A DNA stretch of 64,000 bases from Candidatus Sulfotelmatobacter sp. (GCA_049517555.1 JBEKRY010000001.1:700-64699); one strand, 5' to 3'; shown: positions 18,007 to 33,378, numbered from the stretch's first letter. Translations and numbers: made by a program. The notes: generated from the sequence alone by a model not told the origin.

Positions 18007-18615
18007 ATGACGATGCTGAATCGCCGTACACGTGCGGGAAAAGTTTCGGTTGGGCTTCTGGTTGCGCTCTTGCTGGTGTCGCATACGCCAGCCCGCGCGC
18101 ACAACGGGCCGCCGTTTCCTATTATTGAGAACAAGAAAGTTGGGCCTTGTATAGTTGCTCTTTGGACTCATCCTGACGTTGGCACCGGAGCCTTTTATGT
18201 GTTCGTGGAGCCGGAGCCGGGTGCAACGCTACCGGACGATCTGAAGATCAAGATAGGCGTTCAGCCCGTTACCGGTCGGCTGCCTGAAACATTTTATGAG
18301 GCCGAGCACGTGAAGTCGCGTGGACCGGTGCAATACAACGCTCAGGCCCAGTTCGACCGGCAGGAGTTGTGGCGTGTGCGTCTTGTGATTCGGAGTGCGC
18401 AAGGCAATGGCGAGGCGACCGCCGACGTTGAAGTAACGCCGCCCGGGTTCGGGCGGTGGGACCTTTTGTTGTATCTTTTGCCATTTCTGTTTGTGGCGTT
18501 CCTGTGGGTTCTTGGTATATCGCGCATGAAGCGCCGCAAGAACGCGCGATTGCGCGACGGAGCCGAAGCGGCAATCGCCGCGCAGACAGCCGGCCCCGAG
18601 AAAAGTTCCAATTGA
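18007..18615 (+). CDS. Secreted, C-terminally membrane-anchored protein of unknown function; the predicted mature N-terminus is His
   Basis: 202-aa ORF. The signal peptide ends ...LLVSHTPARA followed by HNGPPFPI. The C-terminal helix is WDLLLYLLPFLFVAFLWVLGI, followed by a basic tail (SRMKRRKNARLR). Confidence 0.6.
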   Translation: MTMLNRRTRAGKVSVGLLVALLLVSHTPARAHNGPPFPIIENKKVGPCIVALWTHPDVGTGAFYVFVEPEPGATLPDDLKIKIGVQPVTGRLPETFYEAEHVKSRGPVQYNAQAQFDRQELWRVRLVIRSAQGNGEATADVEVTPPGFGRWDLLLYLLPFLFVAFLWVLGISRMKRRKNARLRDGAEAAIAAQTAGPEKSSN

Positions 18616-18656
18616 CGCTGCGATTCTCTAAATGTTCTCGTGGAGGCTGGTTTCTG

Positions 18657-21600
18657 ATGTGCGTCAACTCGATGCGATGTTGCAGCCCTGCTTCCGCTCC
18701 GCGCGACAGGCGATCAGGCAGTTTTCAGCGTGCGATGTTGTCGCTTCTTCTCGGAAGCCTTGTGACGGTACTCTCGGGATGCCATTCCAGCCCCAAGCTG
18801 CCCGAGAAAGGATCGAAGGCCTATGCCGATGTGGTTTCAGCTTTCTATGTCGGGCTCGCTGCCCTCCAGGTTGGCGATGACGTTCACGCCGAGAGCAAGC
18901 TTTCGGAGCTGACCCAACTCGTACCCACGGAACCTGCCGGATGGGCGAACTGGGGCGTGCTCGCGTTGCGCCAGCGAAACTACGACCTAGCCGCGCAAAG
19001 GCTGGAGCGGGCCCGCGATCTCGCGCCGCAAAATGATCAGATTTACGATCTGCTGGGGATCCTTGAAGGCCAACGCGGCCATTCCGCGGAAGCGATTGCA
19101 GACTTACGGAAAGCCGTCGACCTCAATCCGAAGAATCTGCGCGCCGCCTATGCGCTTGCGGAAGAAATCGAACGCGAGGGGGACGCCAACAGCGAGGCTG
19201 AATTTCAGCAGGTGATCGAGAAGATTCTGGCGGCGCAGCCGGACAATCTCGCCGCGTTGCTCGAGTTGAGCCGCGTTGCCGCAAAGCGGGGCGATGCCGC
19301 CACACTCAAGTCAGCGGTAGCCGAGATCAGCGCCCGCTCCTCCGCATGGCCGCCCGAAGTGCAGCAGCAACTTGCAACCGTGCAGGCTGCGGCGGCTGGA
19401 ACGGATTTACGGGCAGCCGCCACGCGGACCACTTTTCTGCGCAACGTGCTCATGCGCGTTCCCGAGTACCGGCAGAGTCTCTCCGTCATCAAGGCGCCCG
19501 CTGGCGAAGAGGCGCGGCCCTTCACCCACTTTGTGCGAATGGAATCGCCTGTCTTTATGCCTGCCCCGGCAGACACCGCGATTCAATTCCCCGTTCAGCC
19601 AGTCGCGGATGACAACGATCATTGGAATGGGAGTCGAAGTTGGAATTGGATTGGAGCCATCCAACTGGGCAGCGCCGGCGTGCCCGTTATTGCCGTGGCC
19701 AATGGCCGCGAAGTGCATTTGTCTTTGCCCAGCGGCGCAACGCTTCCCTTTCCCGGTGGACCGTCTAACGTTCCGCCGTTGCCTGAGGGAGTTTTGCAGG
19801 TCGACTTCAACTACGATTTCAAAACCGATCTCGTGCTCGCGGGCGCGGGAGGAGTGCGTTTGTTCCGCCAGGACAGTCCGAGCGTGTTCACTGATGTAAC
19901 GACACAGACCAAGTTGCCCAAATCTGTGACCAACGCCCGCTATACGGGCGCGTGGGCAGTCGACATTGAAGCGGACGGTGATCTCGATATCGTTCTGGGC
20001 TCAAAGGATTCGCTTCCGACTGTATTGAGAAACAATGGAGACGGCACATTCTTAGCCATCCATCCTTTTGCCGGAATCACGGGCGCGGTCGGATTTGCCT
20101 GGGCTGACCTCGACGGTGACGGCAACCCCGATGCCGCCATCATTGACGGCGCGGGCCGGTTGCACGTCTTCATGAATGAGCGGCAAGGGCAGTTCCGTGA
20201 GCGTCCGCTCCCCGCAGGATTGCCGCTCGTGAAAGCAATTGCCGTCGCCGACGCGAACAATGATGGAGTTCTCGATCTCCTGGCGGTGCAGGCTGACGGA
20301 GCCATCATTCGGATTTCTGACAAGAACGAAGGAGAAAGCTGGGAGACCGCAGAGATCGCAAGAATCCCGGACCCTGCCAAAAATCTCGCGGGCGAGGTGC
20401 GACTCCACGTTGCTGACCTCGACAACAACGGAGCCCTCGATCTTTTTCTGGCTCCGACAAAGCAGGGGCCTGGTGCAGCCGGGGCTTTGATTTGGCTCGG
20501 CGATGACAAGGGCAAATTCGTGCCGCTGGACCATCCTGCAGGACCAGCTTTGGTGTTTGACGCCGGAGACTTGAAGGGCGACGGCAAGCTTGATCTGGTG
20601 GGGCTTAGCGCCGACGGAGCGCCCGTCCAAGGGATGAATCAGGGATCGAAGAATTATCACTGGCAGATCGTTCGGCCGCACGCGGTACAAGCCGTCGGCG
20701 ATCAGCGCATCAATCCATTCGGCATCGGCGGCGAAATTGAAATTCGCTCCGGCTTGCTGGTGCAGAAGCAGCCAATCACCGGACCGCAACTTCATTTCGG
20801 ATTAGGGGAACAGACCGAGGCGGAGATCGTGCAAGTAGTCTGGCCGAATGGAACGGTGCGCGCCGAGTTCGGCGTGAAAGCGGACACCGAGATCGTGACC
20901 GAGCAACGCCTGAAGGCTTCCTGTCCGTTCCTCTTCGCTTATAACGGAAAGCAGATGGAGTTCGTGAAAGACGCTGTTCCCTGGGGGTCGGCGATCGGCC
21001 TGCGTATCAATACTCTTGGTTCTGCGCAAATCGCGGCGACCGGAGAATGGTACAAGATTGGCCGCGACCAACTCGTGCCGCACGACGGCTACTACGACCT
21101 GCGCATCACGGCGGAGTTGTGGGAGGTTTATTACTACGATTATCTGGCGCTGATGGCCGTCGACCATCCGGTGGGCACGGAGATTTTTGTCGATGAACGT
21201 TTCGTAATTCCTCCGCTGAAGCTTGGCCTCACGACCGTGGCTACGCCGCACGAAATTGCGCGGGCCATCGACGACACGGGCCAGGACGTTACTGACATCG
21301 TCCGTACGCTCGACGGAAAAGCCCTTGCCAGCTTCGGGCGCGGCCAGTATCAGGGCATCACGCGCGATCATTACCTTGAAGTTGACCTCGGCGGCGACGC
21401 GCCGAGAAGCGGCCCCCTCTATCTAATCGCACAGGGATCGATTCACGACACCGAGTCGTCGGTGAACGTCGCCATCACCCAAGGCAGCCGCTGGCGGGCT
21501 CACGGGTTGAGCCTGGAAGTTCCGGATGGCCACGGTGGCTGGGTCACGGCGCAGGACAATCTGGGCTTTCCGGCGGGGCGGAAGAAAACAATTCTTTTCA

Positions 21601-22235
21601 ACCTGACCAACGTCTTTCGGCCTGGCACTCCGCGCCGCGTGCGAATCCGAACCAATCTGGAAATTTACTGGGATGCCATTCATTGGGCGCAGGGCGCGCC
21701 AGACACGCAACTGAAGACGGTGACTCTGAATCCCAGCCTGGCCGATCTGCATTATCGCGGATATTCCGTCATGCACATGCCGGGGGCTGCACGAGCGCCC
21801 GAGGTGCCCGACTACAGCCAGATCGAAGGGACCAAGCAGCGCTGGCGCGATCTGATCGGCTACTACACCCGCTATGGCGACGTGCGCGAACTTGTCGACC
21901 ACATCGACGATCGTTACGTGATTGTGAATTCAGGAGATGAACTCTCTCTGCGTTTCCCGGAGCAACCGCCTCCGCCGGCGGGCTGGGTGCGCGACTTCGT
22001 GATTGTCGGTGACGGCTGGATCAAAGACGGCGACTACAACTCCACGTTCTCGAAGACCGTGCTCCCTCTTCCGTATCACGCCAAGAATGAGTACACCACG
22101 CGGCCCGGTCGCCTCGAAGACGAATGGGTTTACCAGCAGCATCCCGACGACTGGAAAAACTATCACACGCGTTATGTCACTCCTGATGTCTTCAAGAACG
22201 CGCTAAGGGATGCAAGGGGTGAAACCGGCAAATGA
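18657..22235 (+). CDS. Lipoprotein with N-terminal TPR repeats, FG-GAP/VCBS repeats, an ASPIC/UnbV domain and a ~470-aa uncharacterised C-terminal region
   Basis: The track ORF starts at 18456 and overlaps the upstream gene. I place the start at the ATG at 18657 (GGAGG 9 nt upstream), giving ...RAMLSLLLGSLVTVLSGC (lipobox). FG-GAP-like segments include DIEADGDLDIVLG...NNGDGTF and ADLDGDGNPDAAII. The ASPIC/UnbV-like segment is NPFGIGGEIEIRSG...LHFGLGEQTEAEIVQVVWPNGT. Confidence 0.75.
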   Translation: MCVNSMRCCSPASAPRDRRSGSFQRAMLSLLLGSLVTVLSGCHSSPKLPEKGSKAYADVVSAFYVGLAALQVGDDVHAESKLSELTQLVPTEPAGWANWGVLALRQRNYDLAAQRLERARDLAPQNDQIYDLLGILEGQRGHSAEAIADLRKAVDLNPKNLRAAYALAEEIEREGDANSEAEFQQVIEKILAAQPDNLAALLELSRVAAKRGDAATLKSAVAEISARSSAWPPEVQQQLATVQAAAAGTDLRAAATRTTFLRNVLMRVPEYRQSLSVIKAPAGEEARPFTHFVRMESPVFMPAPADTAIQFPVQPVADDNDHWNGSRSWNWIGAIQLGSAGVPVIAVANGREVHLSLPSGATLPFPGGPSNVPPLPEGVLQVDFNYDFKTDLVLAGAGGVRLFRQDSPSVFTDVTTQTKLPKSVTNARYTGAWAVDIEADGDLDIVLGSKDSLPTVLRNNGDGTFLAIHPFAGITGAVGFAWADLDGDGNPDAAIIDGAGRLHVFMNERQGQFRERPLPAGLPLVKAIAVADANNDGVLDLLAVQADGAIIRISDKNEGESWETAEIARIPDPAKNLAGEVRLHVADLDNNGALDLFLAPTKQGPGAAGALIWLGDDKGKFVPLDHPAGPALVFDAGDLKGDGKLDLVGLSADGAPVQGMNQGSKNYHWQIVRPHAVQAVGDQRINPFGIGGEIEIRSGLLVQKQPITGPQLHFGLGEQTEAEIVQVVWPNGTVRAEFGVKADTEIVTEQRLKASCPFLFAYNGKQMEFVKDAVPWGSAIGLRINTLGSAQIAATGEWYKIGRDQLVPHDGYYDLRITAELWEVYYYDYLALMAVDHPVGTEIFVDERFVIPPLKLGLTTVATPHEIARAIDDTGQDVTDIVRTLDGKALASFGRGQYQGITRDHYLEVDLGGDAPRSGPLYLIAQGSIHDTESSVNVAITQGSRWRAHGLSLEVPDGHGGWVTAQDNLGFPAGRKKTILFNLTNVFRPGTPRRVRIRTNLEIYWDAIHWAQGAPDTQLKTVTLNPSLADLHYRGYSVMHMPGAARAPEVPDYSQIEGTKQRWRDLIGYYTRYGDVRELVDHIDDRYVIVNSGDELSLRFPEQPPPPAGWVRDFVIVGDGWIKDGDYNSTFSKTVLPLPYHAKNEYTTRPGRLEDEWVYQQHPDDWKNYHTRYVTPDVFKNALRDARGETGK

Positions 22236-24043
22236 CTGCCAACCGCATCGCGAGGGCCATTGTCGTTCTCTTCTTTATAGGGCTATTGGCTACTCCTTTT
22301 GTTATTAAGCGGATGACGGCGAGGCGGGAAGCCGACCGATCGAAGTTCGACGCAAAGACTGCATTGGCACGCCACGGGTTTTATCTCGAAGAGGTCTCTC
22401 AAGCGGCCGGCATCAATTTTGTCCATCAATCTCCGAAGCTTGATCCGAAATTAGATCCCATCATGCCCGAGGTTGCTTCGATGGGAGCGTCGGTGTCGAT
22501 CGTCGATTTCGATCGTGACGGCTGGCCCGACATCTACGTTACGAACAGCGCGATCGGGAGCAAGAATGCTCTCTATCGCAACCTGCATGACGGAACTTTC
22601 AAAGACGTGGCCGGTGAACTGGGCATTGCCGACGTGAACCAGCCCGGCACTGGCGTTTCGACCGGCGCGGTTTGGGGAGACTACGACAATGATGGGTATG
22701 AGGATTTGTTCCTGATCAAGTGGGGACGACCGGAACTGTTTCACAATGATCAGGGCCATGGCTTCACCCGCGTGACCGAGCAAGCTGGATTGCCGCCCTG
22801 GATCAACGCCAACACGGCCATCTGGTTCGATTACGACGGCGACGGACTTCTGGACCTTTTTGTTGGGGGCTACTATTCGGAGGACATTGATCTGTGGCAT
22901 CTGACCACGACGCGCATCATGCCCGAGAGCTTTGAATATGCCAAGAACGGCGGGCGAAAGTATTTGTTTCATAATCTCGGCAGCGGGAAATTCGAAGAAG
23001 TCAGCGCGAAAGTTGGCATTAACAGCCGACGTTGGGCCCTGGCGGCTGCCGCGGCGGATCTGCGTGGCACGGGCCATCCTGATCTGTTTGTTGCGAATGA
23101 TTATGGAGTGTCGGAGCTTTACTTCAATGACGGCAAACGGTTTCATGAGGTCGGCGAACAGACGGGCGTCGGCTTTGCCCCCAAAAGCGGCATGAATGCT
23201 GCGTTTGGCGACATCCTCAATCAAGGCAGATACTCGGTTTACGTTTCCAATATTTCGGAGGACGGCATTCTTATTCAGGGGAATAACTTGTGGGTGCCGA
23301 AGGAAGGCACTGCGGGTAACGCCGTTAAGTATCAGAATCTGGCGCGCGACTTTGGGGTGGAACTTGGAGGATGGAGTTTCGGCGCGCAGTTTGGCGATTT
23401 GAATAACGATGGAACGCTCGACCTGTATTTAACCAATGGTTACATCTCTCTCGACCGCAAGCGAAGTTACTGGTATGACTTCTCGAAAGTTGCCGGCGGG
23501 AACAGTACCATTATTGGCGATGCCAAGAATTGGCCGGCATTTGAGGGACGCAGTTTGTCGGGCTACCAAACGAAGAGAGTCTGGCTCAACGATGGCGCCG
23601 GCAGATTCGTCGATGTTGCCCAGGCCATTGGCGCTACCGATACTTATGACGGACGTTCCGTAGCGCTCGTCGATTTATGGAATCGCGGTGTGCTCGACGT
23701 GGTTGTCGCCAACCAGAATGGACCATTGCTGCTTTACAAAAATACGGTCGCGCTAGAGAACCAGTGGATCGAATTCGAACTGGAAGGAACCAGCTCAGAT
23801 CACGGCGGCAGCAACCGCAGCGCGATCGGCGCCCAGGTGACGCTGTTTTGGAATGGCCAGCAGCAGGTGCAAGAAGTTTCCGGTGGCAGCGGTTTCGCCG
23901 CGCAGAATGATCGGCGGTTGCATTTCGGTCTGGGCAGGAATGCGCAGATTGAGAAGGCGATCATTCGATGGCCATCAGGTAAGGTTCAAACTCTCGACCA
24001 ACCCGTTGCCAATCAATTACACAAGGTGAAGGAGCCCGCATGA
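22232..24043 (+). CDS. CRTAC1-family protein (FG-GAP/VCBS repeats + ASPIC/UnbV domain) with an N-terminal signal anchor
   Basis: 603-aa ORF whose start overlaps the upstream stop (ATGA). Supporting sequence: AIVVLFFIGLLATPFVI; VDFDRDGWPDIYVTN...YRNLHDGTFKDV; WGDYDNDGYEDLF; and the C-terminal segment AIGAQVTLFWNGQQQVQEVSGGSGFAAQNDRRLHFGLG...IRWPSG. Confidence 0.85.
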   Translation: MTANRIARAIVVLFFIGLLATPFVIKRMTARREADRSKFDAKTALARHGFYLEEVSQAAGINFVHQSPKLDPKLDPIMPEVASMGASVSIVDFDRDGWPDIYVTNSAIGSKNALYRNLHDGTFKDVAGELGIADVNQPGTGVSTGAVWGDYDNDGYEDLFLIKWGRPELFHNDQGHGFTRVTEQAGLPPWINANTAIWFDYDGDGLLDLFVGGYYSEDIDLWHLTTTRIMPESFEYAKNGGRKYLFHNLGSGKFEEVSAKVGINSRRWALAAAAADLRGTGHPDLFVANDYGVSELYFNDGKRFHEVGEQTGVGFAPKSGMNAAFGDILNQGRYSVYVSNISEDGILIQGNNLWVPKEGTAGNAVKYQNLARDFGVELGGWSFGAQFGDLNNDGTLDLYLTNGYISLDRKRSYWYDFSKVAGGNSTIIGDAKNWPAFEGRSLSGYQTKRVWLNDGAGRFVDVAQAIGATDTYDGRSVALVDLWNRGVLDVVVANQNGPLLLYKNTVALENQWIEFELEGTSSDHGGSNRSAIGAQVTLFWNGQQQVQEVSGGSGFAAQNDRRLHFGLGRNAQIEKAIIRWPSGKVQTLDQPVANQLHKVKEPA

Positions 24044-24918
24044 GCCAGCAGACGAGCGCGCCAGCATTTCCTCCGCAATCGCCAGCCGGGTCCCCTCAAG
24101 CGCCAACTCAGAAGACGCCTTGGTTCAGCCTCGACAACCGTTACATCGCGCCCGCTTTTATTACCTGCATTCTGCTGGCTGGTCATTTGTCGTTCGGCAT
24201 TCTCGAGAGCTATCAGAAGACGCTGCTTGCGATCGTTACAAGTATTGGACTCGAACTCGTGCTCGGGCGGATTTTCTTTCACAAATGGGTACACCCCGCC
24301 AGCGCTTACATCTCGGGGATCAGTGTCGGCATTCTGGTGCGGTCGCCGGCCTTCTGGCCGTACGCGCTGTGTAGCGCGATTTCTATCACGTCCAAGTATG
24401 TGTTGCGGGTGAAGGGCCGTCACATCTGGAATCCGTCTAACTTCGGCATTTCGGTGATGCTGTTTCTGGCTGCGGAGACCGTGGCCACGTTAAGCATCCA
24501 GTGGGGCAATTACCTTTTGCCCATGCTCGTGATCTGGGCGCTGGGATCAGTGATTATCTGGCGACTGCGGCGGTTTCACATCACGGGCATTTATGTCGCG
24601 TCGTTCATTGCCTTCGCATTCGTTCGCAGCTGGATGACCGGAAGCCCCTGGCAATCGGAGATTGCGCCGATTACCGGTCCCATGTACCAGCTCTTCATTT
24701 TCTTCATGATTACCGATCCGAAAACCACAGTGCGGTCCAAGCGAGGGCAGTGTCTGGTCGTGTTTCTAGTAGCTGTGGTGGAAATGATTCTGCGGTTAGA
24801 CCAGATCGTTTACGCACCTTTTTATGCGCTATTCGTGGTGGGTCCAACGGCCATGCTGATCGAGATCTGGCTGGATTCCCGCCACGCAAACGCTGCAAAA
24901 CTGACGGTGGCTCGGTGA
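24040..24918 (+). CDS. Stand-alone RnfD/NqrB-like polytopic membrane protein
   Basis: 292-aa ORF with an ATGA overlap with the upstream gene. It carries family-type motifs HIWNPSNFG and FFMITDPKTT (compare FNPA and FFMATDPVT in RnfD/NqrB). I see no SGAT-type flavinylation motif. Confidence 0.6.
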   Translation: MSQQTSAPAFPPQSPAGSPQAPTQKTPWFSLDNRYIAPAFITCILLAGHLSFGILESYQKTLLAIVTSIGLELVLGRIFFHKWVHPASAYISGISVGILVRSPAFWPYALCSAISITSKYVLRVKGRHIWNPSNFGISVMLFLAAETVATLSIQWGNYLLPMLVIWALGSVIIWRLRRFHITGIYVASFIAFAFVRSWMTGSPWQSEIAPITGPMYQLFIFFMITDPKTTVRSKRGQCLVVFLVAVVEMILRLDQIVYAPFYALFVVGPTAMLIEIWLDSRHANAAKLTVAR

Positions 24919-26798
24919 CGGCTGGTAAACGGGCTCCGCGATCTCAAAGGCCACTGCGCCGTGTCGTTTATTCCCTGCTGCTGGTTGCTCTGTTTATGTT
25001 GACGAGTTGCAAGCCAAAGGCATCGAGCGAGCCAAAAGCTGTTCCGGTGACTCCGGCGCAGATTCCCACGCCAGTAGCGTCTCAAGCCCAATCCGCTGCA
25101 CCCGACTCGCCCGCGAAACTTCCTCGCCCCTCCGGTCCCATTGAGTTCACGGATGTCACTGCCCAGGCAGGCATTCATTTCAAACACAACAGCGGCGCGT
25201 TCGGCAAGAAGTATCTTCCGGAGACCATGGGCAGCGGCGTTTGTTTCTTGGATTACGACAATGACGGATGGCAGGACATTCTGCTGGTCAATTCCATGGA
25301 CTGGCCGGGGCATAAATCTGGCAATTCGTTTCCCGCGCTTTATCACAACAATCGAGACGGAACGTTCACCGATGTGACGCGGCAGGCTGGTCTCGCGGTG
25401 GAGATGTATGGGCTCGGTTGCGCCATCGGCGACTATGACAACGACGGCTATGTCGACATTTACATCACCACCGTTGGGTCCAACCATCTTTTCCACAATC
25501 TGGGCAATGGCAAGTTTGCCGACGTTACCGCTAAAGCTGGAGTAGCCGATCCGGGATTCTCCGCGAGCGCGGTGTGGTTTGATTATGACAACGACGGGAA
25601 GCTGGATCTTTTCGTCGCCCACTACATCGACTGGTCCATTGAGACCGATCAATACTGTTCACTCGACAACAAGAACAAGTCGTACTGCACTCCGCAGAGG
25701 TATAAGGGCCAAAGCTCCGCGCTCTTCCACAACAAGGGCGATGGAACGTTTGAGAACGTCACGCGACGCGCCGGACTCTACGATCCCACGAGCAAATCGC
25801 TTGGGGTCGCTTTATTGGACTACGACAACGATGGCTGGCTCGATCTTTTTGTTTCCAACGATACGGAACCAAACAAGCTCTACCGCAACAATCACAACGG
25901 AACCTTCACGGATGTAGCGGTCGCGGCCGGCGTGGCTTACAGCGAAGCAGGCACGGTGCGCGCTGGGATGGGTACGGACGCGGCCGACTACGACAACTCG
26001 GGATGGCAGAGCCTGGTGATCGGCAACTTCACCAACGAGGGGATGGCGCTTTACCACAACGATGGCTCGGGGCTATTCACGGATGAAGCGCCGGCGACGG
26101 GCATTAGCAGGATATCGACCAAGTCGCTGACGTTTGGCACGTTCTTTTTTGACTACGATCTTGATGGTCTGCCCGATATTCTCGCGGTCAACGGCCACGT
26201 CTCCGACGACATCAGCGTGGTGCAGCCACAAGTTAAGTATGCCCAACCGCCGCATTTGTTCCGCAACTTAGGCAAGAACAAGTTCGAGGAGGTAACCACA
26301 AGACTGGGCTCCGCGCTGCAACGTCCGATCGTGGGCCGCGGCGCGGCCTACGCAGATTTCGACAACGACGGTGATCTGGATTTACTGATCACTGCCAACA
26401 ACGGACCAGCGCGGTTGCTGCGCAACGACAACGGCAACCAGTACGACATGCTGCGGGTGAAGACCGTGGGCACACGATCGAACCGCGATGGCATCGGCGC
26501 GAAGGTCACGGTCAAGACAAACGCGGGAACACGCCTGTTCGCCATGGTGAAAACAGGTTCAAGCTATTTATCCCAAAGCGAACTGCCGCTCACCTTCGGC
26601 TTGGGCAAACCGGGAGCAGGCAAGACGGTGAGACTGGAGGTCGTCTGGCCCAGCGGCCAGAAAGATATGATCCCAAACATCATGCCGAATCAGTTCATCA
26701 CGGTGAAAGAAGGCAAAGGTATTGTTTCGACACAGCCCATCGTGTTTTCCAAGACCGGCCCCCCGCAGTCGTCGGCGCCCGCCTCTTCGCAAAAGTGA
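24915..26798 (+). CDS. CRTAC1-family lipoprotein (FG-GAP/VCBS repeats + ASPIC/UnbV domain)
   Basis: The track ORF starts at 24501, inside the upstream gene. An in-frame GTG at 24915 overlaps the upstream TGA (GTGA) and gives VTAGKRAPRSQRPLRRVVYSLLLVALFMLTSC (lipobox). Supporting sequence: LDYDNDGWQDILLVN; GDYDNDGYVDIYI; and the C-terminal segment GIGAKVTVKTNAG...GSSYLSQSELPLTFGLG...VVWPSG. Confidence 0.8.
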   Translation: MTAGKRAPRSQRPLRRVVYSLLLVALFMLTSCKPKASSEPKAVPVTPAQIPTPVASQAQSAAPDSPAKLPRPSGPIEFTDVTAQAGIHFKHNSGAFGKKYLPETMGSGVCFLDYDNDGWQDILLVNSMDWPGHKSGNSFPALYHNNRDGTFTDVTRQAGLAVEMYGLGCAIGDYDNDGYVDIYITTVGSNHLFHNLGNGKFADVTAKAGVADPGFSASAVWFDYDNDGKLDLFVAHYIDWSIETDQYCSLDNKNKSYCTPQRYKGQSSALFHNKGDGTFENVTRRAGLYDPTSKSLGVALLDYDNDGWLDLFVSNDTEPNKLYRNNHNGTFTDVAVAAGVAYSEAGTVRAGMGTDAADYDNSGWQSLVIGNFTNEGMALYHNDGSGLFTDEAPATGISRISTKSLTFGTFFFDYDLDGLPDILAVNGHVSDDISVVQPQVKYAQPPHLFRNLGKNKFEEVTTRLGSALQRPIVGRGAAYADFDNDGDLDLLITANNGPARLLRNDNGNQYDMLRVKTVGTRSNRDGIGAKVTVKTNAGTRLFAMVKTGSSYLSQSELPLTFGLGKPGAGKTVRLEVVWPSGQKDMIPNIMPNQFITVKEGKGIVSTQPIVFSKTGPPQSSAPASSQK

Positions 26799-26984
26799 CG
26801 AGCCAACTCTTGCAACCGATTACCAATTGCGGTCTCTAGCATTTTTATACTATTGCCCCTTAGACCCTGCGCCATTAACGTCTCTAAGCGAAATTGTGAG
26901 CGTCGTTCTTGAAGCGGGAAACTTTTGGGTTTGCAAAACCTCGGATCTTGTAAAACAGGGTTCCACGTCGCCGGAGTTGGGGGA

Positions 26985-27623
26985 ATGAGAGTGCTGAAAG
27001 GCTGCTCCGAAAAAATTTCCCTGCCAGTAAAGCGCGTTGCACTCGAAGGCGTTGCCGCCCAGCCGGGAGCATCGGCCTTTCAGCTCGCCAGTCTCCTCGA
27101 ACAGTTTCATCGTGTAACAAACGACGCAAACAAGTTGGTTCTCGGCCGCGCGGCGGGCGATCTGACCAGCAGGTTGCATTCGGGTTCGTGGTCGGCGACG
27201 GAATGCCTGGACCATCTCACAAGGACGACGCTCTCATTTCTGCCGGCCATCTCACGGGCGATTGCGACCGCTCCCGAGCTCGCCACGAATCGCTCGCTCC
27301 GTACCGGAACGATCGCCTTACTCTTGATTCGTAATCTGGAACCTCCGTATCGTCTCCGCTACAAAGTTATCCCCGAACTCGTGCCGCAGAAAACGGGTTT
27401 TGAGGCTGCATGGTCGAACTTTGAGAGGTCACAATCGCAGGTCTCCGAAGGCGTCCAGGCGGCGGTCGGTTTCGCCATCGACAAGGTGCAGGTGCGGTGT
27501 CCGGTGTATGCGCGAATAAGCTACAACGTCTATGGGGCTTTTCGCATGCTGGCCGCTCATCAACGCCGCCATCTCTGGCAGATGCAGCAGATTCTTACAG
27601 CGCTCGACCGAAAACGGTCTTGA
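26985..27623 (+). CDS. DinB-family (DinB_2-like) protein
   Basis: ORF-track frame is 26925..27623; the ATG at 26985 follows GGGGGA. SWSATECLDHLTRT and the C-terminal AAHQRRHLWQMQQI are typical His-containing DinB helices. Confidence 0.6.
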   Translation: MRVLKGCSEKISLPVKRVALEGVAAQPGASAFQLASLLEQFHRVTNDANKLVLGRAAGDLTSRLHSGSWSATECLDHLTRTTLSFLPAISRAIATAPELATNRSLRTGTIALLLIRNLEPPYRLRYKVIPELVPQKTGFEAAWSNFERSQSQVSEGVQAAVGFAIDKVQVRCPVYARISYNVYGAFRMLAAHQRRHLWQMQQILTALDRKRS

Positions 27624-27651
27624 AAGGCGCACTTTACGGGCCGCACCAGTC

Positions 27652-28287
27652 ATGAACTCCGCAAACGACGACAGCCAGAATTCAAAAAGCCATCCCGATC
27701 CTCAGCCGGCAAAGCCCGCCACTAAAATCAGAATCATCGAAGATGCGGAAGCCACCGGAGAAACGGCTGCCGCCTACGACTTTTGGCGAGCCGGGTCGGG
27801 AAGACAGCAAGTTCCCGGCATCATGAAGTGCTTCGGAGCGCGGCCGGACTTCCTGCGGCGCATCATTGAAATGGGAAACACGATCCATTTCTCGGAAGGA
27901 CACCTTTCGCGCCGCCACAAAGAGATGATCGCCAGCTACGTCTCTTATCTGAACCGCTGCCCGTATTGACTGGACAGCCATGCCTACTTCCTGCGGGTTC
28001 AGGGAGCATCCGATCAATGTGTAAAAGCACTCATCGAGGGCAAGCTCGACGAAGCCGGCCTTACGGCGGCGGAGCGCGCCCTATTGGCATATGTGGAGCT
28101 GATTACTCACGCCGCTTACCGATCAACTCCCGAAGACGTTGAGAAACTGCGAGTCGCCGGATGGAAGGAAGAACAGATTTCAGAAGCGGTATACATCGCG
28201 GCTCTGTTCGCTTTTTTCAATCGGGTTGCGGACGCCTTCGGCGTGCCTTCTCAGGACTATCTCGGAACCGGAAAATTGACGCCGTGA
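27652..28287 (+). CDS. AhpD/carboxymuconolactone-decarboxylase-family peroxidase-related protein with an in-frame TGA (27967-27969) at the second Cys of the CxxCxxxH motif. It is either a candidate selenoprotein (211 aa including Sec) or a nonsense pseudogene.
   Basis: Track ORFs 27532..27969 and 28084..28287 share one frame and are separated only by this TGA. I checked codons 27970-28083 and found no further stop. The translation around the TGA is ...HKEMIASYVSYLNRCPY-TGA-LDSHAYFLRV.... The domain continues after the TGA (LTAAERALLAYVELITH...AALFAFFNRVADAFG). The paralog at 29741-30313 has CYFCQHAH at the same place. Confidence 0.7.
27987..28006 (+). other. SECIS-like hairpin beginning 17 nt downstream of the in-frame TGA
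   Basis: The arm cttcctg (27987-27993) pairs with cagggag (28000-28006), giving 7 bp including one G-U. The 6-nt loop is CGGGUU, with G at loop position 2. The loop starts 24 nt after the UGA, inside the range described for bacterial SECIS elements. Confidence 0.45.
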
Positions 28288-28297
28288 GTGCGATCTT

Positions 28298-29617
28298 CTA
28301 TTGAGTCCCGAACGCATCTGAGTAGCGGGGGAGTAAGAGGTTGGTGGCGGCTGCCAATCCCAGCGCGGCTGCCAGAAGAATCAGGAGAGAAGAATACGAA
28401 CCCGTCGCATCGAAGGCCCGCCCCAGGATCACCGGACCGATGGCTCCCGCGGCAGCATAAAACGTCCAGGTAAGACCGTACAGAGTGGAGAAAGCGCGAA
28501 GCCCAAAATAACGAGTCAGCAGGTACGGTGTAATGGCGGCTTCCCCTCCGGCACCCACACCAATCAGCGCAGCAGCCAGGCAGCCCGCGGGAAAACTGGT
28601 CGCGCGAGCGAGAAGAAAAATGCCCAGCGCGGTAATGAGATTGATAACAAGCGCGACGCGTGGGCCGAAAAATCGGTCGAGGAGCCAGCCCACCCCAATC
28701 CTACCCAGCAGACTTGATCCTCCGAGTACGGACGCGCACAGCGCCGCATTTCCGGCAGTCAGGCCGCGATCGGTGAGCAAAGCTGACAAGTGAGTGATCG
28801 CTCCATTCATACTGATCGAACTCACGAAAAGAATGGCGGTGATAATCCAGAAGGCCGAAGAACGCAGGCCCCGCTGCCATGTCGTTCCAGAATGAGGAAC
28901 CGGAGCGGACTCGCGCTCGATTGCGCCACGCTCGTGGATATAGCGCCAACTGAGAGGCAAGCCGAGGAGCAACGCAAGCCCGCCGAGTGTGGCATAGGCT
29001 GCGCGCCAGCCACTCCAAGTGATCACGAATTGAGCGACGACGGGCAAAATCATGGCGCCCAATCCTGCTCCAACCATCACGAAGGCCAAGGCCGTCCCCA
29101 AGCGCCTCTGAAACCAGGTGGAAATCGATCGCGAATATGCGAGATGAGCTGCCCCATTCCCAACAATCCCCAGCACGAAGCAAGTCAGGTAGAACTGCCA
29201 CAAACCAGCGTGCAGCAGAGACAGCGAGGCGATGGCGCACGCATACACCGTCATGCAAATAAGGATGATGCGGCGAGGGCCAAAGCGGTCAATCCACCGC
29301 CCGAGCACTGGGGAGACGACGCCCAACGTGACGGCTGCAATGGCGAATCCGCTGGAGATGGCCTCACGACTCCAGGCGAATTCCGCCGCCAACGGCTTCA
29401 CAAAAACGGAGAATGTATAAACGAACAGCGAACCGAATCCCGCCATCACACCGAGACACGCCGCCAACACTACGCGCCAGCCGTAATATCCGAGATCGGA
29501 TTCGGTGAGGTCGGAAGTCATTTCGGTAGATTGCATTTGTGCCTTAAGGCCAAGTTCGCGCTTACTTTCCAAAGCCAAGACCTCGGCGATGGCTTTGGCA
29601 GGATTCGAATAGTACAC
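28298..29617 (-). CDS. MFS transporter (oxalate/formate-antiporter-like subfamily by appearance)
   Basis: 439-aa ORF with about 12 hydrophobic helices and the MFS loop motif GRWIDRFGPRR. The start may be the internal Met at 29536 (MQSTEMTS). Confidence 0.8.
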   Translation of the reverse strand: MYYSNPAKAIAEVLALESKRELGLKAQMQSTEMTSDLTESDLGYYGWRVVLAACLGVMAGFGSLFVYTFSVFVKPLAAEFAWSREAISSGFAIAAVTLGVVSPVLGRWIDRFGPRRIILICMTVYACAIASLSLLHAGLWQFYLTCFVLGIVGNGAAHLAYSRSISTWFQRRLGTALAFVMVGAGLGAMILPVVAQFVITWSGWRAAYATLGGLALLLGLPLSWRYIHERGAIERESAPVPHSGTTWQRGLRSSAFWIITAILFVSSISMNGAITHLSALLTDRGLTAGNAALCASVLGGSSLLGRIGVGWLLDRFFGPRVALVINLITALGIFLLARATSFPAGCLAAALIGVGAGGEAAITPYLLTRYFGLRAFSTLYGLTWTFYAAAGAIGPVILGRAFDATGSYSSLLILLAAALGLAAATNLLLPRYSDAFGTQ

Positions 29618-29740
29618 GGGTTGCCTCGCGGCCTCTCTAGTGTTTTTGGAGTATTGCCGCGATTGTAGGGAAGGGATTACAAGAAGCCGCTAAAGGCGAC
29701 CGCGGCAAACCAGACGAAGTGGATGTTTAAGGAGATTTTT

Positions 29741-30313
29741 ATGGCGCACATTCGACTACCGGAAGGTATTCCTGGAATTTTGGGGCCGATGGCCCTCAGT
29801 CCTGAGACTGCAAAACCTCTCAATGCACTCGCCGAGGTGCTTTTGCGTGGTCCGAATTCGTTGTCGGCGGCGGACCGAGAAATGATTGCGACCTACGTGT
29901 CATCGCAGAACGATTGCTACTTCTGTCAACACGCTCATGGTGCTGTGGCTGCTTACCGGCTCAACGGGAATGACCAACTCGTTGACAGTGTGAAGGCGAA
30001 TTTTGAGGTGGCTGCAATTTCGGAGAAGCTGAAGGCCTTGCTCGCCATCGCCGGCAAAGTACAGCAGGGCGGCAAGCAAGTCACGAATGAGGATGTCGCT
30101 CGTGCCCGGCAGCAGGGCGCAACCGATAAAGAAATCCACGATACAGTTCTGATTGCAGCCGCATTCTGTATGTACAACCGCTATGTGGATGGGCTAGCGA
30201 CGTGGGCACCCACCGACGCCGACCTCTATCGTGAGAATGGAAGACGGCTTGCCGACGAAGGCTACGTCCAGTCGACCGCACATCTACCTGCCCCGCAGAA
30301 AGAGTGTGCCTAG
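29741..30313 (+). CDS. AhpD/carboxymuconolactone-decarboxylase-family peroxidase-related protein (Cys form)
   Basis: ORF-track frame is 29723..30313; the ATG at 29741 follows AAGGAG by 7 nt. It has DREMIATYVSSQNDCYFCQHAH (CxxCxxxH) and a C-terminal ...LIAAAFCMYNRYVDGL. Confidence 0.8.
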   Translation: MAHIRLPEGIPGILGPMALSPETAKPLNALAEVLLRGPNSLSAADREMIATYVSSQNDCYFCQHAHGAVAAYRLNGNDQLVDSVKANFEVAAISEKLKALLAIAGKVQQGGKQVTNEDVARARQQGATDKEIHDTVLIAAAFCMYNRYVDGLATWAPTDADLYRENGRRLADEGYVQSTAHLPAPQKECA

Positions 30314-30441
30314 TCTTCACCGAAAGGGCGCACGCCTTCCCGAGGGCAGGACAAAACCTGGCAAACAACCGAAGTCCAACCTCGGCGGTGGTTTCCAACC
30401 AAAATCAGTCGAAGGATAATTCTTATTTATCAGAGGAGCTT

Positions 30442-31545
30442 ATGAATCGGCGCAACTTTCTCCAATCGACCGGCGCCATCTGCGCGGGTTGGGCAGTGAC
30501 AAGATCAATGCCAGTCTTCGCCGACGCGTTAGGTTCGGCCGGCAACTGGCGGACCTTCGAGGTCACTACGAGGGTAGAAGTATTGAAGCCAAGTGGAGTC
30601 ACTCACATCTGGCTGCCGTCCGCGCTGATTCGTGATACGCCGTTTCAGAGAACACATGCCAACAAGTTCCGCGTTGAGGGTGGATCGGCCAAGTTCAGCA
30701 AGGACAAGCCGAACGCCCTCGGGATCGTGTCGGCGACTTACCCGGCTAACGCGAAGCCCGTGCTGACGCTGACCAGCCAGGTTTCTGTGAAGAACTACGC
30801 CGTCGAACTCTCGGTACCCGGCAGCGCGCCACACGTTTCACCGCACGTCGCAAAAGAAGAGCTCGACTATTTTCTTCAGCCCAGCCGCTATGTGCCTACC
30901 GACGGCATTGTGAAAGAGACCGCTCTCAAAGCGACCGCCGGCACGACCACCGACGCGGAGAAGGCTCGCGCCATTTACGACTGGGTGGTGGACAACACAT
31001 TTCGCGATCCGAAGGTCCGAGGCTGTGGACGCGGCGACATTCGGTTTATGCTGGAGTCGGGCGACATGGGTGGAAAATGTGCCGACTTGAATGCCCTTTA
31101 CGTTGGTCTGGCACGCTCCGTTGGCCTGCCAGCGCGGCATGTTTATGGTTTGCGGATTGCTAAATCGGACTTGGGCTATAAAAGCCTCGGAATAGCGACG
31201 GACCAAGCCACCAAGGGCCAGCACTGCCGCACGGAGGTATACCTTCGCGAACACGGCTGGGTTCCAGTGGACCCGGCAGACGTACGCAAGGTGGTTCTGG
31301 AGGAACCGCCGGGAAATCGTCCTCTGAGCGATGAGATGGTGTCGAGGGCGCGCAATCGCCTGTTCGGCTCATGGGAGATGAACTGGATGGCATATAACTA
31401 CGCTCACGACGTAGCGCTGCCAGGTTCCGCCAAACAGCCGTTGGTTTATTTCATGTATCCGCAGGCGGAAACAGGGGAGGGACGAGTGGATCCATTCGAT
31501 CCGGACAACTTCAAGTATGAAATCACGGTGAAGGAGAAGATCTAG
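30442..31545 (+). CDS. TAT-exported transglutaminase-like (Cys-His-Asp fold) protein
   Basis: ORF-track frame is 30304..31545; the ATG at 30442 follows GAGGAG. The twin-arginine signal is MNRRNFLQSTGAICAGWAV. Core motifs are GGKCADLNALYVGLARSVGLPAR, HCRTEVY and WVPVDP. Confidence 0.75.
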   Translation: MNRRNFLQSTGAICAGWAVTRSMPVFADALGSAGNWRTFEVTTRVEVLKPSGVTHIWLPSALIRDTPFQRTHANKFRVEGGSAKFSKDKPNALGIVSATYPANAKPVLTLTSQVSVKNYAVELSVPGSAPHVSPHVAKEELDYFLQPSRYVPTDGIVKETALKATAGTTTDAEKARAIYDWVVDNTFRDPKVRGCGRGDIRFMLESGDMGGKCADLNALYVGLARSVGLPARHVYGLRIAKSDLGYKSLGIATDQATKGQHCRTEVYLREHGWVPVDPADVRKVVLEEPPGNRPLSDEMVSRARNRLFGSWEMNWMAYNYAHDVALPGSAKQPLVYFMYPQAETGEGRVDPFDPDNFKYEITVKEKI

Positions 31546-31680: not shown

Positions 31681-33378
31681 GTGAAGACTCTTGTGGCTGC
31701 CCTCACGATTTCGCTTTGTTCCATTTGTTCCCCGGTTGCGGCTCAACAGTTTTCTTCCGTCCCCGGCCAAGGCAGATCGATGGTTGTAACAAAGCTGGGA
31801 ATTGTGGCGGCGCCGCAATTTCTCGCCTCCCAGGCCGGCGCGCACATTCTGGAACAGGGCGGCAACGCCGTGGACGCGGCAATTGCTGCAAACGCCGTCA
31901 TGGGCGTGGTGCAGCCGTACGTGAACGGCATGGGCGGAGATCTGTTCGCCATTTACTATGACGCGAAGACGAAGAAGCTCTATGGATTGAACTCCAGCGG
32001 CTGGACGCCGAAGGGGATCACGATCGAATACTTGAAATCGCACGGCGTCGATCACATCAATCCCATCGGCGTGGAGACCATCGACATCCCCGGTACCGTC
32101 GCGGGATGGGATGCGTTGCGCGGCCGTTTCGGTGCGCTGCCGTTTTCTGAAATCCTGGCGCCCGCGATTTACTACGCACAGAATGGATTCCCATTGGCTG
32201 AGAGGAACGCCCGCTACTGGGTCGCCAAGAGTTTGATGCAGCAGCCGGGCTACAGAGAGACGTACCTGCCCAACGGCGTCGCTCCGATGGTGGGCGATGA
32301 ATTCAAGAATCCCGCACTCGCCAATTCGCTCCGGCAAGTGGCACAGCATGGCCGAGATGCGTTCTACAACGGCCCGATGACGGAGACGATGGTGAGGTTC
32401 CTGCAGGCCCACGGCGGTACGCACACGCTTGAAGATTTTCGCGACTTTCACCCCGAGTGGGTCGAGCCCATCTCGACGACATATCGCGGCTGGACCGTCT
32501 ACGAGCTTCCACCCAATGGGCAAGGAATTGCGGCATTAACGATGTTGAACATCATGGAGCAGTTTCCGCTTGGACAGTATGGGCATGACTCCGCGGATGC
32601 TCTGCAGATCATGATTGAGGCGAAAAAACTGGCTTACGCGGATATGTATAAATATGTCGGCGATCCGCGATTCACGCCGGTTCCGGTGAAGGAGATGCTC
32701 TCGAAGGATCTGGCGAAGAAGCGTGCGGCACTGATCAAGATGGATAAGGCCGCGTGCGAAGTGGTTCCTTCCGACATCGAGAAGATGCTCGACGCTCACG
32801 GCAATTCGACGATCTACCTTTCGGCGATCGATAAAGATGGAAATATCGTTTCCCTGATCCAGAGTAACTACGCGGGCTACGGCACCGGAATGGTCGCGCC
32901 CGGGCTGGGTTTTTCGTTTCACAACCGAGGTGCGGGGTTTCAGTTAACGCCGGGGCTGCCTAATTCGCTGGCCGGCCACAAACGGCCACTGCACACGATT
33001 ATTCCGGCGTTCATGGAGAAGGACGACATTCATATCGGGTTCGGCATCATGGGAGGCTGGAACCAGGCTCAGGCGCACGCGCAGTTTGTTGCGAATGTGG
33101 TGGATTATGGAATGAACGTGCAGGCAGCGCTGGAGCAGCCAAGGTTCACGAAAGGAACGTTTGAAGGCTGCGATGTGCAGATGGAAAGCACGATTCCGGA
33201 ATCCGTAAGAGATGAATTGACCAAGCGCGGACACCAGATCGAACTGCTTGAGCCATTTTCCTTCACGGTGGGACAAGGAGAAGCCGTGGTGAGAGACACA
33301 AAACGAAATGTGAACTTTGCCGGCGCAGATCCCCGTTCCGATGGCGAAGCGATTCCACAGGAGCCGACTACTAAGTGA
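31681..33378 (+). CDS. ggt: Gamma-glutamyltransferase
   Basis: 565-aa ORF with a GTG start after AAAGGA and a signal peptide. GGT-type blocks include QAGAHILEQGGNAVDAAIAANAVMGVVQPYVNGMGGDLF, STIYLSAIDKDGNIVSLIQSN, PGLGFSFHNRG and RPLHTIIPAF. Confidence 0.9.
   Translation: MKTLVAALTISLCSICSPVAAQQFSSVPGQGRSMVVTKLGIVAAPQFLASQAGAHILEQGGNAVDAAIAANAVMGVVQPYVNGMGGDLFAIYYDAKTKKLYGLNSSGWTPKGITIEYLKSHGVDHINPIGVETIDIPGTVAGWDALRGRFGALPFSEILAPAIYYAQNGFPLAERNARYWVAKSLMQQPGYRETYLPNGVAPMVGDEFKNPALANSLRQVAQHGRDAFYNGPMTETMVRFLQAHGGTHTLEDFRDFHPEWVEPISTTYRGWTVYELPPNGQGIAALTMLNIMEQFPLGQYGHDSADALQIMIEAKKLAYADMYKYVGDPRFTPVPVKEMLSKDLAKKRAALIKMDKAACEVVPSDIEKMLDAHGNSTIYLSAIDKDGNIVSLIQSNYAGYGTGMVAPGLGFSFHNRGAGFQLTPGLPNSLAGHKRPLHTIIPAFMEKDDIHIGFGIMGGWNQAQAHAQFVANVVDYGMNVQAALEQPRFTKGTFEGCDVQMESTIPESVRDELTKRGHQIELLEPFSFTVGQGEAVVRDTKRNVNFAGADPRSDGEAIPQEPTTK

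Follow-up and report, generated by a model that had tools for sequence, protein, structure and literature searches.

The experimental archetype of the bacterial SECIS is that of Escherichia coli fdhF. The bSECIS model describes a hairpin with a loop of 3-9 nt, a stem of 4-16 bp and a UGA-to-loop distance of 16-37 nt, with a G among the first two nucleotides of the loop and a G or U after it, and an MFE of -7.5 kcal/mol or below (PMC13188914).

The Sargasso Sea study introduced the 'AhpD-like protein' (COG2128, CxxU) as a new family of selenoproteins, which has been in the literature since 2005 (PMC1088965). It is the fourth most abundant selenoprotein family in the GOS data (PMC2398784), and a 2026 review places AhpD-like selenoproteins under TIGR01926 (PMC13188914). 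Acidobacteria have been known to possess selenoproteins since 2006, the genomes sequenced by that year showing selenoproteins without the selenouridine trait (PMC1794560). Within this phylum, an AhpD-like selenoprotein of the isolate Occallatibacter riparius DSM 25168 is listed as a computational prediction in Data S1 of the deep-Sep paper, where the organism is counted among the Sec-utilising ones, a class for which SelB, or SelA together with SelD, had to be present (PMC12013277). The proton-relay residues of AhpD itself have been defined (PMC3141380).

Here we describe a gene with an in-frame TGA in a 64,000-nucleotide stretch of DNA from Candidatus Sulfotelmatobacter sp. (GCA_049517555.1 JBEKRY010000001.1:700-64699), referred to below as the window. 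An initial annotation, made from the sequence, had proposed an AhpD/CMD-family selenoprotein with a SECIS-like hairpin and had noted that AhpD-like proteins are reported selenoproteins. The published record confirms the latter point (PMC1088965, PMC2398784, PMC13188914), and since such proteins have already been reported, the find adds no new family. Publications already cover the family, its motif and an ortholog from a cultured species of the same order; the gene is therefore an ordinary member of a described family, and its orthologous group has been reported before from a cultured acidobacterium.

Results

Comparison with described systems

The predicted protein is 64% identical to the O. 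riparius AhpD-like selenoprotein over 186 residues, and the two share an identical ...LNRCPYULDSHAYFLRVQGA... segment. The marine representative of the family, MCB9421940.1, is 31% identical, with its U aligned to the TGA of the window. There is no essential difference from the AhpD-like family (COG2128/YciW, TIGR01926), the NCBIfam family being the same and Sec standing at the second position of CxxC. With Mycobacterium tuberculosis AhpD (TIGR00777) the protein shares the CMD/AhpD domain and the relay residues Glu-x11-Cys-x-x-Cys-x-x-x-His, whereas it differs in having a predicted Sec for the second Cys and no ahpC neighbour. A Tyr at the third motif position is shared with PA0269. The families NF041238 (Sargasso Sea 'hypothetical protein 1') and NF041047 likewise combine an AhpD-type domain with CxxU.

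Profile scoring, carried out with Cys put at the TGA position, gave 96.8 bits for the NCBIfam family TIGR01926 'peroxidase-related enzyme' (cut-off 81.8), the match spanning protein residues 27-202 and positions 4-177 of the 178-position profile, and 64.8 bits for Pfam CMD PF02627 (E = 7e-18). Scores for canonical AhpD TIGR00777 (22.8 bits, cut-off 191.95) and for NF041238 AhpD_rel_CFYUT (67.8 bits, cut-off 175) were below threshold, so that the protein is a member of neither family, and the profile search returned no match to NF041047 'distant AhpD homolog'. Among PDB sequences, 6K40 (AhpD), 2OYO, 2PFX, 3C1L and 2PRR matched residues 53-205 with E = 1e-12 to 3e-17, and the CxxC segment of 6K40 aligns with the motif of the window protein. 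All five are Cys proteins, unlike the predicted Sec form of the window, and a structure of a Sec form was absent from the PDB sequences searched. We consider the product very probably to be an AhpD-like thiol/selenol oxidoreductase of 211 residues from a Terriglobales (Acidobacteriota) bacterium, belonging to the TIGR01926 'peroxidase-related' clade.

A single gene with a TGA at the second motif cysteine

The ORF list cuts the gene in two (27532..27969 and 28084..28287), with both pieces in the same frame. When the region is translated in that one frame, the sole stop inside it is the TGA of codon 106, which gives ...LNRCPY*LDSH... around the codon (the asterisk marking TGA) and ...EMIASYVSYLNRCPY*LDSHAYFLRVQGAS... 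over a longer stretch. A further 105 sense codons separate this TGA from the terminal one, and the start ATG at 27652 is matched by the N termini of full-length homologs in the alignment. The resulting motif is C103-P-Y-U106-L-D-S-H110, that is CxxU followed by xxxH, with U at the TGA codon. Cys103 stands twelve residues downstream of Glu91. When Cys homologs are aligned, E91, C103, Y105, C106 and H110 never vary, and they match the proton-relay residues of AhpD (PMC3141380). The coordinates of the features are collected in Table 1.

Table 1. Features of the AhpD-like gene, in window coordinates.
Feature	Position	Strand	Basis
AhpD-like selenoprotein CDS (predicted), 211 codons plus terminal TGA	27652..28287	+	single-frame translation
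Active-site segment: Glu91, Cys103, Tyr105, Sec106 (predicted), His110	27922..27981	+	alignment with Cys homologs
Glu91	27922-27924	+	translation
Cys103	27958-27960	+	translation
TAT, Tyr105, directly 5' of TGA	27964..27966	+	invariant codon
In-frame TGA, codon 106, predicted Sec codon, second position of the C-x-x-U motif	27967..27969	+	comparative conservation; aligns with Cys in distant homologs
His110	27979-27981	+	translation
SECIS hairpin (predicted), inside the CDS	27987..28006	+	folding and synonymous-site comparison
Hairpin 5' arm, CUUCCUG	27987-27993	+	
Apical loop, CGGGUU	27994-27999	+	
Hairpin 3' arm, CAGGGAG	28000-28006	+	
Terminal TGA stop of the same gene	28285..28287	+	translation; orthologs end at the same position

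A paralog 2 kb away (29723/29741-30313) is 29% identical, reads ...SSQNDCYFCQHAH and has Cys at the position aligned to the TGA. On all these points the initial annotation described the locus correctly: one frame split by a single TGA, a stop at the second Cys of C-x-x-C-x-x-x-H, 105 sense codons beyond it, a CMD/AhpD domain (here recovered through TIGR01926, PF02627 and the PDB sequences) and a paralog with Cys in the same column. The region 27652-28287 is one gene; it represents neither two fragments nor a pseudogene.

The TGA is conserved among related loci

Metagenome contigs and species-representative genomes were used to examine the codon in relatives of the window, and TGA occupies the same codon in 159 of 160 related loci when the two sets are combined, far more than chance would give. 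Among the metagenome loci, 75 of 80 related contigs have TGA at exactly codon 106, at 57-98% amino-acid identity, and four more, at 54-57% identity, have it in a CPY*[IT][GD]SH context; the remaining one (L076) has TGC instead. The best 80 genome matches, which are 80 different GTDB species representatives and all Acidobacteriota/Terriglobales MAGs, have TGA in every case. Several of these MAGs are named Candidatus Sulfotelmatobacter. The window DNA is ∼99% identical to contig Ga0302307_10004932 and ∼90% identical to MAG MFD00964.bin.1.103, and its lineage is that of uncultured peat or forest-soil Terriglobales.

The protein databases gave a mixed picture at the same position, with Cys aligned to the window TGA in 74 of the best 120 homologs and Trp printed in 45, all of the latter from JGI. 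The closest 43 of these 120 (66-86% identity, JGI) all show Trp, and the more distant ones Cys. For one Trp-type protein (P0008) the underlying codon is TGA, and translating the record with code 11 fails to reproduce the database protein; its Trp is therefore a gene-caller artefact on a short contig. Exact matches to the W-type database proteins were absent from the related loci. Cys is also found at the position in L076, L163, L165 and L166, and Cys-type homologs reach 64-73% identity to the window protein. A neighbour-joining tree, midpoint-rooted and without support values, suggests at least two switches between Sec and Cys. Damaged copies are rare: L075 is frameshifted 20 codons past the TGA, and in L168 AGA replaces the TGA.

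Beyond the TGA the open frame has a length of exactly 105 codons in 152 of 156 loci, and the terminal stops of the orthologs stand at the same position, as TGA in 90, TAG in 35 and TAA in 29. Pairwise dN/dS is ∼0.05 before the TGA and ∼0.07 after it, with dS ∼1.5. As judged from these rates, purifying selection acts on the codons past the TGA, contrary to what a decaying pseudogene would show. Furthermore, with synonymous divergence approximately saturated at this value, the contigs carrying TGA are not copies of one clone. Among 18 family-supported genes of the window, this one included, 11 have TGA as their stop; as TGA thus terminates this gene and 10 of the 17 others checked, the genetic code is the standard one.

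The hairpin downstream of the TGA

A hairpin of seven pairs, one of them G-U, begins 17 nt past the TGA. It lies within all four constraints of the bSECIS model, with a loop of 6 nt, a stem of 7 bp, CG[G/U] at the start of the loop, 24 nt from UGA to loop and an energy of -7.5 kcal/mol for the 20-mer, the last exactly at the model limit. The resemblance to the bSECIS consensus consists in a hairpin inside the coding sequence just past the UGA, a small apical loop, and a G followed by G or U near the loop start; the difference is that the window hairpin is short and sits at the energy limit. No sequence is shared with the SECIS elements of E. coli. The 7-bp hairpin with loop CGGGUU that the initial annotation had drawn at this distance was thus recovered by sequence and fold, and the geometry ascribed to it agrees with the published model.

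On the window sequence alone, the hairpin is no better than chance and derives its significance only from relatives: folding gives a z-score of +0.8, and all seven pairs survive in 19.7% of synonymous recodings. Synonymous variation was compared in 129 distinct orthologs, over the 120 codon columns whose amino acid is both conserved and degenerate. It was entirely lacking in just six of these columns, namely TAC, TTC, CTG, CAG and GGA in the two arms and the TAT that precedes the TGA, and the chance of all five arm codons falling among six frozen columns is ∼3e-8. The codons of the loop vary (CGG/CGT, GTT/GTC/GTA), as do all flanking codons. The arm Gly is always GGA, which accounts for only ∼27% of Gly codons in these genes, GGC being commoner. 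Likewise, the Tyr codon before the TGA is TAT in 129 of 129 distinct orthologs and never TAC, with the other Tyr codons of the gene varying; TAC does occur before the TGA among the four distant TGA homologs. It is possible that this TAT is a context element for recoding.

Each pair of the hairpin is retained in 98-100% of 112 distinct segments. The changes observed are one-sided (U-A to U-G, or U-G to U-A), with no double compensatory change, and the lack of compensatory covariation follows from the invariance of the arms. The distant TGA homologs retain the hairpin with one-sided changes, and in L079 a Gly-to-Glu substitution turns the G-U pair into A-U. The Cys homologs L163, L165 and L166 retain the FLRxQG peptide with codons (CTC, CAA or GGC) that break the pairing. 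In L165 both types occur in one genome, a Cys copy without the hairpin beside a TGA copy with it. A similar hairpin is still present in the distant Cys homolog L076.

Genomic neighbourhood and Sec machinery

The neighbours of the gene encode a DinB_2 protein, an MFS transporter, the Cys paralog, a transglutaminase-like protein and a gamma-glutamyltransferase. The only frequent neighbour among relatives is the MFS transporter (56 loci). A seemingly conserved linkage to the Cys paralog proved spurious, the query having matched the Sec gene itself. AhpC/peroxiredoxin genes were found neither in the window nor within 5-10 kb in ∼165 relatives.

The 64 kb of the window contain no homologs of selA, selB or selD, no tRNA genes, tRNA-Sec included (ARAGORN), and no RNA families (Rfam); ten more large ORFs of the window are unrelated. 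In relatives, ARAGORN detected no tRNA-Sec in any related locus, and SelA, SelB and tRNA-Sec were absent from ∼1.9 Mb of DNA, all of it centred on this locus. Candidates for SelA and SelB obtained by tblastn with E. coli queries were a DgaE-like PLP enzyme (TIGR01437) and an EF-Tu adjoining EF-G, and so represent neither SelA nor SelB. A true SelD (TIGR00476, 368.6 bits) is encoded in seven loci with a TGA ortholog, ∼9 kb from it. The selD gene of these relatives is placed in the gidB-parA-parB ... yidC origin region, and no other sel genes surround it.

Discussion

Sequence comparison across ∼160 lineages shows selection on the UGA, the downstream frame, the TAT codon and the arms of the hairpin. 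It is almost certain that the in-frame TGA specifies a conserved selenocysteine and is not the mark of a broken gene, and a gene for an AhpD-like oxidoreductase with a Sec-UGA and a SECIS is, in our judgement, the highly likely reading of the locus. The AhpD/CMD selenoprotein with a SECIS-like hairpin that had been proposed at the outset is supported by the conserved TGA, the frozen arms and the purifying selection. For Sec decoding as such the support is indirect, coming from SelD in seven relatives with the TGA ortholog, from a second conserved TGA gene in 24 relatives and from the 64%-identical ortholog of the Sec-utilising O. riparius.

By this reading, UGA codon 106 would be translated as selenocysteine. 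The 7-bp hairpin would serve as the SECIS, recruiting SelB-GTP-Sec-tRNA(Sec) to a ribosome paused at the UGA, and translation would then run on to the real stop at 28285-28287. By analogy with AhpD, Sec106 may stand in for the second Cys of the proton relay and may cycle between a selenol and a selenenyl-sulfide with Cys103, thereby reducing an oxidised partner or a hydroperoxide.

The initial annotation had named a TGC-to-TGA pseudogene as the alternative. A recent mutation of this kind (or a sequencing error) would have inactivated a Cys-type gene and left the downstream frame to decay, and there are grounds for considering it: TGA and TGC differ by one base only, the nearby paralog (2 kb) has Cys, Cys homologs exist at 64-73% identity, and rare damaged copies such as L075 (frameshift) and L168 (AGA) do occur. 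The comparison of orthologs, which the annotation had itself suggested, found TGA and not TGC in this column, in 75 plus four metagenome loci and in 80 of 80 representatives from different species. Moreover, substitution beyond the TGA shows none of the relaxation that decay would bring (dN/dS ∼0.07, length kept in 152 of 156 loci), and the synonymous sites of the hairpin are frozen. We regard the pseudogene as extremely unlikely, and the comparative data exclude it. A genome-wide change of code, with TGA as a sense codon (codes 4 or 25), is what the public 'W' calls would imply if the Trp printed in 45 of the best 120 protein matches, all from JGI, were taken at face value. The DNA behind P0008 is TGA, however, its W being a gene-caller artefact, and TGA serves as the stop of this gene, of 90 among 154 orthologs and of 11 among 18 family-supported window genes; such a reassignment is next to inconceivable, and is excluded by this stop-codon usage.

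Recoding of the UGA to an amino acid other than Sec calls for a closer weighing, as SECIS-dependent delivery of Cys would leave an identical sequence signature. The codon could be read as Cys by a tRNA(Sec)-like tRNA(Cys)UCA together with a SelB-like factor, could receive its residue from an allo-tRNA, or could be read as Trp by near-cognate read-through helped by the hairpin. Experiments have shown that the selC* tRNA(Cys)UCA inserts Cys at opal codons, and Acidobacteria have been found to possess allo-tRNAs that may act as suppressors; selC*, on the other hand, is reported in Firmicutes, Thermodesulfobacteria, Nitrospirae and Proteobacteria, and not in Acidobacteria (PMC5389517). Relatives encode a true SelD, the Acidobacteria genomes of 2006 had selenoproteins without the selenouridine trait (PMC1794560), and the site is one at which Sec and Cys are known to replace each other in a published family of selenoproteins. 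TGC would be the simpler way to encode Cys, and is the codon that the Cys clade uses. Given SelD, the history of the family and the simplicity of TGC, we hold non-Sec recoding to be very unlikely. There is a similarly slim prospect, compatible with the conserved UGA, the frozen hairpin and the SelD of relatives, that the codon is served by the SECIS hairpin but read not, or not solely, as Sec. The site would then be a conditional Sec/Cys one, where a UCA-anticodon tRNA of the tRNA(Sec)-like or allo type might insert Cys or Ser in Terriglobales, for example in selenium-scarce acidic peat. Finally, the hairpin might be a by-product of the conserved Y-F-L-R-V-Q-G peptide written in common codons, any read-through being independent of it. 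The proportion of synonymous recodings that keep the seven pairs, the similar hairpin of the Cys homolog L076 and the lack of compensatory covariation are all compatible with this explanation. It fares poorly against the five arm codons, which are identical in 129 of 129 orthologs despite a dS of ∼1.5 and include the less common GGA, no other codon of the gene being frozen except the one before the UGA; against the three Cys homologs, which have drifted to CTC, CAA or GGC under the same peptide; and against L079, where the Gly-to-Glu change makes an A-U pair of the G-U. Hence a hairpin arising merely from the peptide is most improbable.

The locus should be annotated as a single gene; in relatives, public gene calls either break it in two or place Trp at the catalytic position. 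The predicted AhpD-like selenoprotein is conserved in 80 or more species of Terriglobales from peat and forest soils, often with a second, deiodinase-like selenoprotein gene nearby, which implies that the redox defence of abundant soil Acidobacteria depends in part on selenium. General knowledge of selenoproteins is unchanged by these results; their practical value lies in the corrected annotation and in the conservation of this predicted selenoprotein across many soil Terriglobales.

The deiodinase-like gene is present in 24 related loci, at 0.3-7.6 kb from the AhpD-like gene. Its product shares 53-65% identity with a published selenoprotein of O. riparius, whose Sec position (GSYT-U-PPF) is occupied by TGA in every one of the 24 loci.

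A predicted second selenoprotein gene and selD near the AhpD-like gene

A deiodinase-like gene with an in-frame TGA accompanies the AhpD-like gene in 24 related loci, at a distance of 0.3-7.6 kb. The motif reads GSYT-TGA-PPF, with the TGA codon present in 24/24 loci, and the encoded proteins share 53-65% identity with the published selenoprotein of the acidobacterium Occallatibacter riparius. On these sequence features, the gene is a predicted second selenoprotein gene. At three loci (L058, L059 and L069) it is the immediate same-strand successor of the AhpD-like gene; the window holds no copy of it. In three Terriglobia loci, selD was found within a conserved origin-proximal block, gidB-parA-parB-bactofilin-selD-ydjM...yidC-yidD, and in seven genomes this location leaves about 9 kb between selD and the AhpD-like gene.

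Codon context and variants at the UGA

The Tyr codon preceding the UGA is TAT in 129/129 orthologs and TAC in none, making it the sole frozen synonymous site outside the predicted SECIS hairpin. This invariance suggests that Sec insertion requires this codon context in the clade of the window gene; the distant TGA homologs L078-L080 have TAC before the UGA.

In public JGI gene calls, the orthologs P0001-P0043 and others carry Trp at the catalytic position. For P0008, the one Trp-type protein checked, the underlying codon is TGA, and the Trp is therefore a product of the gene caller's TGA-sense code on a short contig rather than of the DNA; mistranslated selenoproteins are thus present in the protein database. 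Two orthologs depart from the common form. The metagenome ortholog P0012 has AGA (Arg) in place of TGA with the hairpin intact; the substitution is due to a sequencing error or is natural, and in the latter case the variant would be inactive. At L075, a small deletion directly 3' of the hairpin causes a frameshift, with a stop 20 codons past the TGA; the copy is either truly damaged, which is rare, or misassembled.

Cys-type relatives

In a rough, unsupported NJ tree, two Cys-type homologs, P0044 and P0073, fall nearer to the Sec forms than does the main Cys clade, and the P0044 locus, which retains the CGGGTT loop, is two synonymous changes short of a working hairpin. Together, this grouping and near-hairpin suggest that Sec/Cys switching may be easy in the AhpD-like family. 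On a 1.3-Mb contig (L165), Cys-type and TGA-type copies stand in tandem 3' of an amino-acid permease gene, with the hairpin codons in the TGA copy only. The Cys-type TIGR01926 paralog in the window (95.3 bits, motif CYFCQHAH) shows only 29% identity to the Sec gene, and its true orthologs are close to the Sec gene in just a few relatives.

Gene neighbourhood

The MFS transporter gene adjoining the Sec gene does so in 56 related loci too. By gene content (a DinB_2 superfamily protein, the MFS transporter, a transglutaminase-like protein and gamma-glutamyltransferase), the surroundings have a thiol/redox flavour. Further 5' are three large genes in succession for FG-GAP / ASPIC-UnbV repeat proteins, and a 2089-aa ORF within a locally GC-richer stretch (63% GC at 8-12 kb vs about 57% elsewhere).

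Coordinates of features in the window and in related loci (L-numbers)
Feature	Position	Strand	Remark
2089-aa ORF	window 6656-12925	+	
FG-GAP / ASPIC-UnbV repeat ORFs	window 18456-26798	+	1259, 603, 765 aa
DinB_2 superfamily protein	window 26925-27623	+	ends 29 nt 5' of Sec gene
Tyr codon before UGA	window 27964-27966		
MFS transporter	window 28298-29617	-	convergent with Sec gene
Cys-type paralog	window 29723-30313	+	
Transglutaminase-like protein	window 30304-31545	+	
Gamma-glutamyltransferase	window 31681-33378	+	
Deiodinase-like gene	L069:573-1271	+	21 more loci besides these three
Deiodinase-like gene	L058:2804-3505	+	
Deiodinase-like gene	L019:548-1195	-	
selD-associated span	L148:19319-20389		
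selD-associated span	L170:10001-11071		
selD-associated span	L171:10001-11065		
Tandem family copies	L165:1501-2094; L165:2091-2732		
Cys-type homolog near Sec forms	L163:1312-1950		P0044
Cys-type homolog near Sec forms	L166:1501-2139		P0073
Trp-type ortholog DNA	L167:501-1100		
AGA ortholog	L168:501-1115		P0012
Frameshifted ortholog	L075, about 1497-1560
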